Virus record (IMG/VR): IMGVR_UViG_2526164652_000007
Length of the DNA stretch: 7,979 nt
Direction: 5' to 3' (one strand)
Source: a virus
Taxonomy: Duplodnaviria; Heunggongvirae; Uroviricota; Caudoviricetes
Part shown: in pieces, positions 5,928 to 7,979 of the stretch
Layout of the letters: every line of letters begins with the position of its first letter
Numbering within the stretch: the stretch's first letter is position 1
Made by a program: the position numbers and the translations under genes
Notes under the pieces: model-generated
Seen by the model: the letters and a program-made list of their open reading frames with translations, nothing else
Databases searched by the model: none
What the model was told of the DNA's origin: nothing

Positions 5928-6833
5928 TTAAGCAGCCATCTGATGATATTTTTCCCTGAAGGCTGCCGGGGAGATATTCCCCAGACGAGAGTGACGACGC
6001 TGACGATTGTAGAAAATCTCAATGTATTCCCGTATTACTGAGATGGCTTCATCCCGGTTATTAAAACGATAGTGGCTCAGGCTCTCATTTTTCAGCGTTC
6101 CCCAGAAGCTTTCCATCGGAGCGTTGTCGTAACAGTTACCTTTACGCGACATTGATGTTTTCAGACCAAACTGCTCCTGTATGACCCGGTAATCGTATGC
6201 GCAGTACTGTGAACCTCGATCAGAGTGGTGGATTAGCCCGGCAGGTGGGCGCTGGCTCCTGAGCGCCATAAACAGGGCTTTACCTGTCAGCTCTTTTGTC
6301 ATGCGCTCTCCCATGGCGTAGCCGACAATTTCACACGTATAAACATCTTTGATGCCAGCGAGGTACAACCATCCCTCCTGTGTGGCAACATACGTCAGGT
6401 CCGCCACCCAGACCTGATTTGGTGCTGTAGGAGCGAACGTCTGGTTCAGCAGATTTGGCGCAACTGGCAGATTGTGGTTCGGGTTCGTAGTCGCTCTGAA
6501 CTTGCGTTTCTGCTTACAGCGTAGCCTTAGCTCCTTACGAAGACGTGCCAGTCGGTCACGACCAACGATGATGCCATTCTCTGCCAGCTCCGTCTGGAGC
6601 CGCCGGGTTCCATATGTTTCGCGAGTGCGGATATGTGCCACCTTAATCTCCAGTTTTAGCCGCTCATCACTTTGTTTTCTGTCTGAGGGTTCATGCTGTA
6701 CCCAGTTGTAATAACCGCTCCTGGATACACCAAATACCTGACACATCGCTTCAATGGGAAATTGTTGTCGCCATTGTTCGATTAACGCGTATTTTTCAGC
6801 GACTCCTGTGCAAAATACGCTGTTGCTTTTTTT
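5928..6833 (-). CDS. IS600-like OrfB (DDE transposase), expressed as OrfAB by -1 frameshift near 6825-6833
   Basis: The -1 frame is open from the slippery site to stop TAA (5930-5928). It contains the DDE-type motifs WVADLTY, HSDRGSQY and CYDNAPMESFW and the C-terminus ...NRQRRHSRLGNISPAAFREKYHQMAA. Confidence 0.8.
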   Translation of the reverse strand, partial: KKSNSVFCTGVAEKYALIEQWRQQFPIEAMCQVFGVSRSGYYNWVQHEPSDRKQSDERLKLEIKVAHIRTRETYGTRRLQTELAENGIIVGRDRLARLRKELRLRCKQKRKFRATTNPNHNLPVAPNLLNQTFAPTAPNQVWVADLTYVATQEGWLYLAGIKDVYTCEIVGYAMGERMTKELTGKALFMALRSQRPPAGLIHHSDRGSQYCAYDYRVIQEQFGLKTSMSRKGNCYDNAPMESFWGTLKNESLSHYRFNNRDEAISVIREYIEIFYNRQRRHSRLGNISPAAFREKYHQMAA

Positions 6834-7084
6834 AATATATCTCGCTCAAGGCGAGCTTCATTTAACGCCTTACGCAGTTGCAGAATTTCAGATTCCAGTT
6901 CAGCCAGCGTGCGGGAACCAGGAGTACCGAGCCCTTTTCTGGCGGCGGTAACCCATTGTCCTAAAGTGCCTTCAGGAAGGGATAATCGGGAAGCGCCTTC
7001 ACTGATCGAAAGTTGATTTTCAAGAACCGTTCTGACAGCTTCGGCTTTGAACTCTTTAGAGTAACGTTGGGTTTTTCTGCTCAT
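6782..7084 (-). CDS. IS600-like OrfA (HTH), 100 aa
   Basis: ATG at 7084-7082 (minus); MSRKTQRYSKEFKAEAVRTVLENQLSISEGASRLSLPEGTLGQWV...RDILKKATAYFAQESLKNTR has the HTH plus leucine-zipper layout of IS3-family OrfA. Confidence 0.85.
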   Translation of the reverse strand: MSRKTQRYSKEFKAEAVRTVLENQLSISEGASRLSLPEGTLGQWVTAARKGLGTPGSRTLAELESEILQLRKALNEARLERDILKKATAYFAQESLKNTR

Positions 7085-7267
7085 TATTAGCTCCTTCTGA
7101 TGCCATTCTATTTCAGGAAGGAGTGTCCGTTAAACTCAGGCTACCTCACCTTTAGACTAAAGAGTTTGTAACGCTATGTAAGTGATTTTTTCTGGTTTAG
7201 ATATTTATATGTCCGGCCAAATTGAGGTGTGTTTAAATGTAATTGCACATTGATTGTAGGAGGAATA

Positions 7268-7447
7268 ATGAAAAACGCATTGCAGTTTTTGTTTGTTGCG
7301 TTCTGGTTGTTCGCATCATGTATGCCCATCATCTTCACAGCAAGGTATATGGAAAAAGTTGATGTTTTGATATTAATATTTGGATATATAAATGCCCTTT
7401 TTTTAGGGGTGTTCATGGCGGTCATGTGCATTGAATACTGGCGGTAA
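7268..7447 (+). CDS. small membrane protein (59 aa, two predicted transmembrane helices), unknown function
   Basis: GGAGG SD (7259-7263) 4 nt before ATG 7268; stop TAA 7445-7447. MKNALQFLFVAFWLFASCMPIIFTARYMEKVDVLILIFGYINALFLGVFMAVMCIEYWR has two hydrophobic stretches. AT-rich. The supplied ORF 7229..7447 is the same frame with a longer N-terminus. Confidence 0.5.
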   Translation: MKNALQFLFVAFWLFASCMPIIFTARYMEKVDVLILIFGYINALFLGVFMAVMCIEYWR

Positions 7448-7781
7448 ATACAGCGAACTCCATTGGTTTAGTTGGATATTTACTGTGCTGGACAAAAACG
7501 GTTTGCGGGGAAATCTTAGTTAAGTAGAATGACTGCGGGTGCTTGAGGCTATCTGCCTCGGGCACGAACACCAACGGCAGGTAGAGAAAAGCCCCAGTTA
7601 ACATTACGCGTCCTGCAAGACGCTTAACATTAATCTGAGGCCAATTTCATGCCAGACACATGTAGGTTAGCCTCTTACGTGCCGAAAGGCAAGGAGAAGC
7701 AGGCTATTGTTAACACCAAGCTGTAATGTCCCCTTTGAATCATTCTAAAATGTCCCCAGACAATTCTCTGGGGGATTTTTC

Positions 7782-7979
7782 ATGATCAAAGAGACTGTTA
7801 CGATGAGTCATAAGGAACTCCACCGACTTCAGATTATTCAGGAGTCAATTAATCGACATATTACTCAGGAACAAGCTGCGGCACGCATTGGCATTTCTAT
7901 TCGGCAGGTTAAACGTCTGGTGCAACGGTATAGAAATGAAGGGCCTTCTGGTCTGGTTTCCCACCGACGTGTGAGGTAG
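7782..7979 (+). CDS. 65-aa helix-turn-helix protein resembling the N-terminus of ISNCY/IS481-type transposases; ends at an amber codon on the last 3 bases of the window
   Basis: ATG 7782 (or 7803) with GGGGGA upstream; ...MSHKELHRLQIIQESINRHITQEQAAARIGISIRQVKRLVQRYRNEGPSGLVSHRRVR then TAG 7977-7979. The HTH-like pattern resembles transposase N-termini I recall. Whether it is a complete small gene, an OrfA or a nonsense-truncated transposase cannot be decided from the window. Confidence 0.4.
   Translation: MIKETVTMSHKELHRLQIIQESINRHITQEQAAARIGISIRQVKRLVQRYRNEGPSGLVSHRRVR

Follow-up and report, generated by a model that had tools for sequence, protein, structure and literature searches.

The described proteins closest in kind to the gene reported here belong to several small-membrane-protein systems. 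Hok, a tiny, hydrophobic and prophage-borne inner-membrane peptide, has one helix. T4 Imm and HK97 gp15 are small phage membrane proteins of the kind that keeps out superinfecting phage or modulates membrane proteins of the host, S21-68 of phage 21 is a class II holin (pinholin), and AcrZ and MgtS are small membrane-protein regulators of Escherichia coli K-12 that were found by ribosome profiling. In this study, we analyzed a stretch of 7,979 nucleotides (nt) from a Caudoviricetes record (IMG/VR virus record IMGVR_UViG_2526164652_000007; hereafter the window) and in it a 59-codon open reading frame (ORF) at 7268-7447 on the plus strand, located to the right of a copy of the insertion sequence IS600. 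Judged from its sequence, this ORF is very probably a real protein-coding gene. Family, structure and profile searches revealed no homology of its product to a known toxin, holin, defence or regulator family, and the small protein is best described as an unnamed, taxonomically restricted addition to the known class of prophage-encoded small membrane proteins, not as a new kind of system.

Coding capacity of the ORF and its distant relative

The ORF runs from an ATG at 7268-7270 to a TAA stop codon at 7445-7447, and its product is MKNALQFLFVAFWLFASCMPIIFTARYMEKVDVLILIFGYINALFLGVFMAVMCIEYWR. A Shine-Dalgarno (SD) sequence, AGGAGG, is read directly from the plus strand at 7258-7263 and is separated from the ATG at 7268 by the 4-nt spacer AATA. 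In a program-made list of ORFs, the same frame begins at an upstream GTG at 7229 and yields 72 amino acids (aa). Because this GTG has GAGG alone, one base 5' of it, the ATG at 7268 is the credible start. The 59-aa protein contains two hydrophobic stretches, residues ~4-25 and ~31-55, with RYMEKVD between them, and 15-residue Kyte-Doolittle means reach 2.3 in the first and 2.4 in the second stretch. The GC content is 37% in the ORF, 36.5% in the segment 7148-7536 and 47.7% in the whole window. A first-pass annotation of the window had listed a 59-aa ORF with a strong SD, two hydrophobic segments and AT-rich composition to the right of IS600, and all of these properties are present in the sequence. 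The interval it assigned to the gene, 7149-7447, comprises the 5' leader in addition to the ORF itself.

An ATG-initiated ORF of at least 59 codons is unremarkable in 389 nt of like composition (P = 0.17). The conjunction of GGAGG, 3-9 nt, ATG and an ORF of at least 50 codons has a chance probability of P = 0.00085, as estimated by 20,000 first-order Markov simulations. T is found at codon position 2 in 31 of the 59 codons, versus 22 at position 1 and 14 at position 3 (p = 0.005), and the GC content by codon position (GC3 0.51, GC1 0.34, GC2 0.29) points to a three-base periodicity. A reading of the region as non-coding RNA was dropped, given that Rfam provided no RNA family over the small ORF and that the RNA fold of 7148-7460 was unremarkable (z = -0.83).

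The evolutionary evidence comes from a distant relative, P0037 (E = 1.2e-8), the only one that phmmer retrieved when 1.84 billion representative proteins were searched exhaustively. It is also 59 aa long and aligns with the window protein over residues 1-59 at 41% identity without insertions or deletions. The window gene and its close copies are termed subfamily A here, and P0037/P0042 subfamily B. Start and stop codons are kept between the two, and the numbers of identical sites at codon positions 1, 2 and 3 are 34, 42 and 28 of 59, respectively (heterogeneity p = 0.03; position 2 versus position 3, p = 0.014). According to the Nei-Gojobori method, pS is 0.71 and pN 0.34, corresponding to a dN/dS of ~0.2 with dS saturated. 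A synonymous excess occurs in the ORF frame alone and in none of the five other frames, and this plus-strand frame is the only one open in both subfamily A and B copies. In a neutral simulation with an equal number of randomly mutated sites, 3% of the runs kept the frame open (P = 0.03), and 17.1 ± 2.4 identical residues were expected versus 24 observed (P = 0.005). The DNAs of A and B detectably resemble each other only in the 3' part of the ORF, in ~25 nt past the stop codon and in a hok remnant further downstream. The generic marks of a real small gene, namely AGGAGG-4 nt-ATG and a conserved open frame with coding-type substitutions, are all found at this locus.

To sample alleles irrespective of the state of the ORF, 120 loci were gathered via the DNA pattern of the 5' leader, 117 of which could be evaluated. 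The 59-codon ORF was intact in 115 of these 117 (98%), unlike the upstream neighbour gene, which is frameshifted or truncated in most loci examined. Common polymorphisms are sparser in the ORF (5 in 180 nt) than in its flanks (16 in 168 nt; p = 0.012), and the 5' leader varies more than the ORF across related loci. The first-pass annotation had made its proposal depend on conservation in related genomes, and this conservation is borne out both by the share of intact loci and by the coding-type conservation in the 41%-identical relative of equal length. The gene of the window itself, including its SD, is intact and identical to the common allele.

Both subfamilies are widespread within a narrow host range. 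Of 5426 complete E. coli genomes, 1585 contain subfamily A, without exception at a DNA identity of at least 97.7%, and 1045 contain subfamily B as a single chromosomal copy. Carriers include IAI1, ATCC 8739, the ECOR13 phage PhiR42_1 and NC101, the last with subfamily B. Word-indexed protein searches with both subfamilies returned E. coli and Shigella proteins alone, which are named "hypothetical" or "membrane protein"; those matching subfamily A are near-identical to the window protein. The sole match outside Escherichia and Shigella is NZ_CP069920.1, a 9.5-kb sequence labelled as a Klebsiella oxytoca plasmid, on which the 389-bp segment occurs at 99% identity; this could reflect a transfer or a misassignment. 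The Rac region of E. coli K-12 that was examined carries neither subfamily, which is consistent with the lack of a name from small-protein surveys in K-12. In the literature library searched, neither the peptide strings nor the UniProt accessions occurred in any paper.

A predicted membrane hairpin and the known families

AlphaFold, run on a shallow alignment of nine sequences, predicts a plain hairpin of two helices, residues 2-26 and 28-58, with a mean pLDDT of 74 and a pTM of 0.48. Together with hydropathy and the alignment, this model places predicted transmembrane (TM) helix 1 (residues ~4-25) at 7277-7342 and predicted TM helix 2 (residues ~31-55) at 7358-7432, both on the plus strand. 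A Foldseek comparison with the PDB returned insignificant generic hairpins alone (best E = 3), and a profile search against PDB sequences gave no match. In subfamily B the N-terminus carries a charge of +2 and the loop one of -2; subfamily A is less polarised, with +1 and 0. By the positive-inside rule, the charges of subfamily B therefore favour an N-in/C-in hairpin, and the topology of the protein is probably N-in/C-in with a short periplasmic loop.

The residues that are invariant across A and B are W13, S17, C18, P20, I21, I22 and T24 in helix 1, L36, F38, G39, N42, A43 and L44 in helix 2, where G47 is nearly so, and E56, W58 and R59 at the C-terminus, forming the motif E56-x-W58-R59. By their spacing, the conserved residues lie on one face of each helix, W13/S17/C18/P20/T24 on the first and L36/G39/N42/A43/G47 on the second. 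Helix 2 combines a small-residue face, G39-x3-A43-x3-G47, with an intramembrane Asn, and such faces and residues mediate tight helix-helix packing. We hypothesize that the product is an inner-membrane hairpin that may self-associate or pack against a membrane protein of host or phage, and that its most likely role would be that of a modulator or exclusion-type factor and not of a Hok-like pore-forming toxin. Among prophage accessory proteins of this type, phage exclusion and the modulation of a membrane protein are the commonest functions; the first-pass annotation had listed toxin, phage-exclusion factor and regulator as candidate roles. As a whole, the statement that the gene encodes a 59-residue inner-membrane helical hairpin, serving as a prophage accessory and working via helix contacts, appears to us somewhat better supported than its negation, whereas the specific mode of action by intramembrane helix-helix contacts is put forward tentatively.

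Among the regulators of E. coli K-12, AcrZ and MgtS resemble the small protein in being shorter than 60 aa, hydrophobic and missed by standard annotation, and by analogy the binding of a larger membrane protein is plausible here as well; the small ORF product differs from them in having two predicted helices. With T4 Imm and HK97 gp15 it shares a short length made up mostly of (here predicted) TM helices, a location in a non-essential early or "moron" region and a narrow taxonomic range, but there is no homology at the level of PHROGs or PADLOC, so that the resemblance is one of kind only. PADLOC and PHROGs each returned zero families for both subfamilies, and for the window protein no match was obtained in Pfam, NCBIfam or PHROGs at E ≤ 10. 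Subfamily B aligns with Pfam DUF4212 at 13.9 bits (E = 0.07), below the gathering cut-off of 30 bits, and subfamily A gives no match to this model; membership was rejected for this reason. Size and two-helix architecture are like those of DUF4212 proteins, yet there is no transporter gene beside the small ORF.

Two toxic classes deserve a closer comparison. Class II holins and pinholins have two TM helices with glycine-zipper-like small-residue faces, as predicted for the small protein, and occur in lambdoid phages. In contrast to them, the small gene lies outside the lysis cassette, in the usual gene order upstream of Q, and matches no holin family; membership was also rejected on the C-terminus, which is just EYWR and has no charged cytoplasmic tail. 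Hok/Gef peptides are similar in size, hydrophobicity and prophage origin, and the small ORF adjoins hok in both subfamilies. However, it shows no sequence similarity to Hok, has no equivalent of the C-terminal soluble segment of Hok, and persists where hok is destroyed. Membership in Hok/Gef was rejected in the absence of a match to the family model and with the hok/sok RNA model RF01794 lying downstream of the ORF and not over it.

The protein might nevertheless be a membrane-damaging toxin or holin-like peptide, of the type I-toxin-like or class II holin-like kind, that kills or arrests the cell. Its strong hydrophobicity, the G39-x3-A43-x3-G47 face with the conserved intramembrane Asn and the position beside hok in both subfamilies would fit such an activity, as would several natural alleles that are interrupted or frameshifted, as if expression were costly. 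On the other hand, the searches linked the protein neither to Hok/Gef or holins nor to any toxin family, the small ORF showed no sign of a mok/sok-like leader or of an antisense RNA over it, and the RNA fold there is ordinary. Near subfamily A, a scan limited to known families and promoters found no known small RNA family and no antisense promoter. Moreover, the ORF is intact in nearly all sampled loci and is kept intact in ~1040 genomes in which hok is destroyed, which is not expected of a stand-alone toxin. Because no antitoxin signature was detected, and because of the lack of a holin-type tail and position and the intactness in decayed prophages, a stand-alone toxin or holin is less likely, and we regard this explanation as unlikely compared with a modulator or exclusion-type hairpin.

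Polymorphism and the possibility of a non-functional frame

Several observations weigh against a functional gene with the proposed action. All eleven polymorphic sites of subfamily A among 115 related loci are nonsynonymous (11/11), with P ~0.03 under neutrality given the mutation types, so that the protein sequence gives no sign of recent purifying selection. The variants at appreciable frequency are A16V, V31I, I37M, Y40H and M53T, and two of the variant residues, M37 and H40, are those found in subfamily B. Such an all-nonsynonymous pattern may reflect relaxed or diversifying selection, and the numbers are small. The SD itself is polymorphic: AGGAGG occurs in 55 loci and the weaker AGGGGG (7261 A>G) in 60 and hence in about half of them, which could result in differing translation efficiency between the alleles. 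Frameshifted, internally duplicated and interrupted ORF alleles occur at low frequency. No sigma-70-like promoter was found on the plus strand ahead of the subfamily A ORF, and upstream of subfamily B promoter-like sites were not above the shuffled background. Among the RefSeq matches listed, PGAP places no feature over subfamily A or B. The evolutionary test is a single deep comparison, because only two divergent lineages are available, both confined to Escherichia and Shigella. Finally, the action proposed above has been drawn entirely from residue-conservation patterns and analogy.

These points raise the question of a non-functional, fortuitously open frame in an AT/T-rich prophage spacer, with a hydrophobicity driven by composition and with copies distributed by recent prophage spread. 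The uniformity of the subfamily A copies (all at least 97.7% identical in DNA), the nonsynonymous polymorphisms together with the polymorphic SD, the missing PGAP features among the matches listed, the lack of a detected promoter and the ordinary chance probability of an ATG ORF of this length would all agree with it. It is opposed by the 41%-identical relative of equal length, with coding-type substitutions, kept start and stop codons and no insertions or deletions, by the rare conjunction of SD and ORF, by the three-base periodicity, by the lower polymorphism of the ORF compared with its flanks, and by its intactness in 115 of 117 loci while the upstream neighbour is mostly pseudogenised in the loci examined. 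We therefore consider a fortuitous frame quite unlikely and retain the interpretation as a protein-coding gene.

Individual alleles required separate treatment. A copy in CP178302 (locus L086, 2375-2930) had been considered a divergent protein with 53% identity; it is really a 91%-identical DNA copy that carries three 1-nt deletions and a 3-nt insertion in the ORF and in which the SD is destroyed. It represents either a truly decayed allele or homopolymer assembly errors, and for this reason it was left out of the selection tests. A selection test within subfamily B was dropped because nearly all of its full-length copies (1037 of 1043) are at least 99% identical. In the interrupted allele P0032, the tail resembles the translation of window positions 670-966 on the minus strand, which suggests that a related element has inserted into the small gene elsewhere.

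Prophage setting, the hok remnant and the insertion elements

The DNA rightward from 7148 is Qin-type lambdoid prophage DNA, and it usually has the replication genes upstream and hok/sok-ydfU-rusA-Q downstream. In E. coli IAI1 it follows dicC, a ydaT-like gene, replication genes, a DUF977 gene and methyltransferase genes, and the phages PhiR42_1 and vB_EcoS-640R1 have the same upstream setting. On the downstream side, vB_EcoS-640R1 and two species-representative genomes show the order small ORF, intact hok/sok, 279-bp ORF, ydfU (DUF968), rusA and Q. The gene appears to be one of the small accessory genes in the mosaic of Qin/Rac-type lambdoid prophages in Escherichia and Shigella. Its position, just ahead of the conserved hok/sok-ydfU-rusA-Q block, would be a variable slot that closes the early-right region. 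Since the gene is co-oriented with the early-right operon and no promoter of its own could be recognised, it is presumably transcribed with the delayed-early genes of the phage and translated from its own SD. The 5' leader (7148-7267, plus strand) extends in the window from the end of IS600 to the start codon, and its homology to the IAI1 and phage loci begins at 7148-7151; in uninterrupted prophages it is the spacer behind the upstream, mostly pseudogenised gene. This normal upstream gene (locus L005, ~1865-2380), the DNA of which is replaced by IS600 in the window, is intact with 171 aa in one sampled locus only, and its product has no Pfam match. Its stop codon abuts the exact point at which IS600 sits in the window.

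Subfamily B, examined in loci L088 (4001-4300) and L089 (NC101, 6302-6478), has a different setting. In NC101 it lies in a decayed prophage remnant adjoining ttcA, in the order integrase fragment, DUF1627 fragment, subfamily B ORF, pseudogenised metal-ABC permease gene, uspF and ompN. Within this decayed remnant with its pseudogene neighbours, the ORF is intact in ~1040 genomes. On one viral contig carrying subfamily B, three ORFs to the left are, as we assume from their translations, cdtABC-like (cytolethal distending toxin).

Downstream of the small ORF, the window contains a hok mRNA leader remnant at 7490-7707 on the plus strand, in which the hok ORF is missing. Rfam RF01794 ("sok antitoxin") matches in full length at 7537-7707 on the plus strand (99.8 bits), in the sense orientation of the hok leader, and the final AUG of the model aligns to ATT in the window. 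The identity to the intact hok locus of vB_EcoS-640R1 is 97% up to 7707 and ends within the hok start codon, with GGCTAT|G in the phage versus GGCTAT|TGTTAAC in the window. On the left, the hok module is bounded at 7490-7518. This decapitated hok/sok type I locus is the sole recognisable toxin element here and was missed by the first-pass annotation. Among the subfamily A loci, hok is intact in 85 of 117 and decapitated in 24 of 117. In subfamily B, what is left of the C-terminal half of Hok, interrupted by an in-frame stop, is found 55 nt past the stop codon of the ORF (VTKKDLHQVRI*GGQMEVDIYT versus VTRKDLCEVRIRTGQTEVAVFT). Because both subfamilies adjoin hok sequence, the adjacency of the small ORF and hok predates the split of A and B.

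This adjacency, maintained by two proteins of only 41% identity that are both encoded directly upstream of hok sequence, might indicate that the ORF and hok form one module in which the small protein is a membrane-level Hok modulator or immunity factor. However, other prophages carry, before DUF968, hok blocks whose leaders are 93-98% identical. These blocks stand behind DUF551, QueH and DUF2326 genes without a relative of the small ORF, and homology of these loci to the window starts only at 7490-7518. Such a hok leader is present in ~4300 genomes, compared with 1585 for the small ORF (subfamily A), and where hok has decayed or been decapitated the ORF persists unbroken. No partner gene is mentioned in a recent survey of how diverse Hok proteins are and where they localise, and the shared position is explicable by the conserved gene order of lambdoid phages. 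An obligate partnership with hok, which had been considered, was downgraded on account of the hok blocks behind unrelated genes, and the whole idea of a partner is in our view very unlikely. Given that hok blocks occur without the ORF and that the ORF persists without hok, we see the small ORF as mosaic cargo in its own right, placed in the variable slot before hok.

The opposite-strand 85-codon ORF (7431-7174, minus strand), although the longest in the segment and entered as a coding sequence in the GenBank phage records PV340562 ("hypothetical protein") and ON470612 ("hornerin"), is rejected as the gene and as such effectively refuted by two stop codons in the locus of the divergent homologue, in addition to which it has no upstream SD and no synonymous excess, runs antisense to the phage early operon and would encode a low-complexity, K- and N-rich product.

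A more far-reaching possibility is that the two subfamilies represent an unrecognised, Escherichia-restricted class of prophage membrane factors, acting in Hok modulation or immunity or in phage exclusion, that has been tied to hok loci from a time before A and B separated, is kept by hosts after decay of the prophage and of hok and is under diversifying selection in the conflict of phage and host, of which the all-nonsynonymous polymorphism would then be the trace. We mention this as a speculation that is improbable at present.

At the right end of the window, an element of the IS1202 family starts at 7708 with TGT; its left end occupies 7708-7979 on the plus strand, includes a helix-turn-helix ORF from 7782, and was identified by the breakpoint in hok and by Pfam HTH_28/HTH_23. 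PGAP names it "IS1202-like element ISEsa1 family transposase". In IAI1 (locus L001, 6561-9862) the element measures 3302 bp and has TGT...ACA ends, an imperfect terminal inverted repeat of 19/26 and a 15-bp direct repeat, GGAGAAGCAGGCTAT. Its cargo consists of a decayed transposase gene, ydfW, flxA, ydfV, relB and relE, and hokD comes after its right end. From this sequence arrangement, relBE-hokD looks like the result of a transposon insertion at the hok start. It has been pointed out before that relBE integrated into an ancestral hokD (PMC6379469), and ISEsa1 has been reported to produce no target-site duplication (PMC10132070). A description of an IS1202-type vehicle with terminal inverted repeat and direct repeat for relBE was not found in the literature searched.

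On the other side of the small ORF, IS600 extends from 5884 to 7147 on the minus strand, with orfA at 6782-7084 and orfB at 5928-6746. Window positions 5880-7147 are 99.5-99.8% identical to annotated copies of an "IS3-like element IS600 family transposase", with the right boundary at 7147/7148. The identification as IS600 in the first-pass annotation was therefore correct, and the ATG of the small ORF lies 120 nt right of the element. At the point 7148, IS600 is present in none of the genomes compared, namely IAI1, the two phage records and three species-representative genomes. In the window the element stands, in opposite orientation to the small ORF, in place of the normal upstream operon.

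Left of IS600 there is a truncated late region of another lambdoid segment, which on the plus strand carries ydfU, rusA, Q, a tRNA-Met gene (anticodon CAT, 3566-3641) and a tRNA-Arg gene (anticodon TCT, 3743-3819) downstream of the Q antiterminator gene, the small RNA STnc100 (4516-4705; Rfam RF02076, 132 bits), also downstream of Q, and behind it a DUF1737 gene (5311-5514). At the left edge of this prophage segment, an ORF at 387-725 on the minus strand has a Pfam HTH_Tnp_1 transposase domain; we take it to be an IS911-like orfA of the IS3 family. Positions 871-1918 are 93.7% identical to the DNA that normally follows hok in loci L085 and L086 (279-bp ORF and ydfU), and this post-hok type of segment sits ~6 kb left of the small ORF, that is, in a non-standard order. 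This suggests that the window consists of two Qin-type prophage pieces in non-standard order that are joined via IS600. An IS600-linked rearrangement, as supposed in the first-pass annotation, is thus supported insofar as the element joins two prophage segments, but the DNA on the right was not brought beside the prophage from outside, being itself Qin-type lambdoid prophage DNA. Because IS600 cuts off the upstream operon and the IS1202-family insertion has removed the hok coding region, the present expression state of the small gene is uncertain; here, transcripts would have to reach it by read-through from beyond IS600 or start at a promoter that escaped detection.

In the window, the small gene is one piece of a prophage region scrambled by insertion sequences, and by itself it does not change any established picture. 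However, small membrane proteins are systematically under-annotated, and the small ORF is a modest addition to the overlooked small proteins. The two GenBank phage records call the wrong strand. As a conserved coding gene it provides annotators with a gene model to add, and it offers a defined candidate in tractable strains for the study of what prophages do at the membrane, for instance exclusion, an influence on host transporters or an interplay with Hok.

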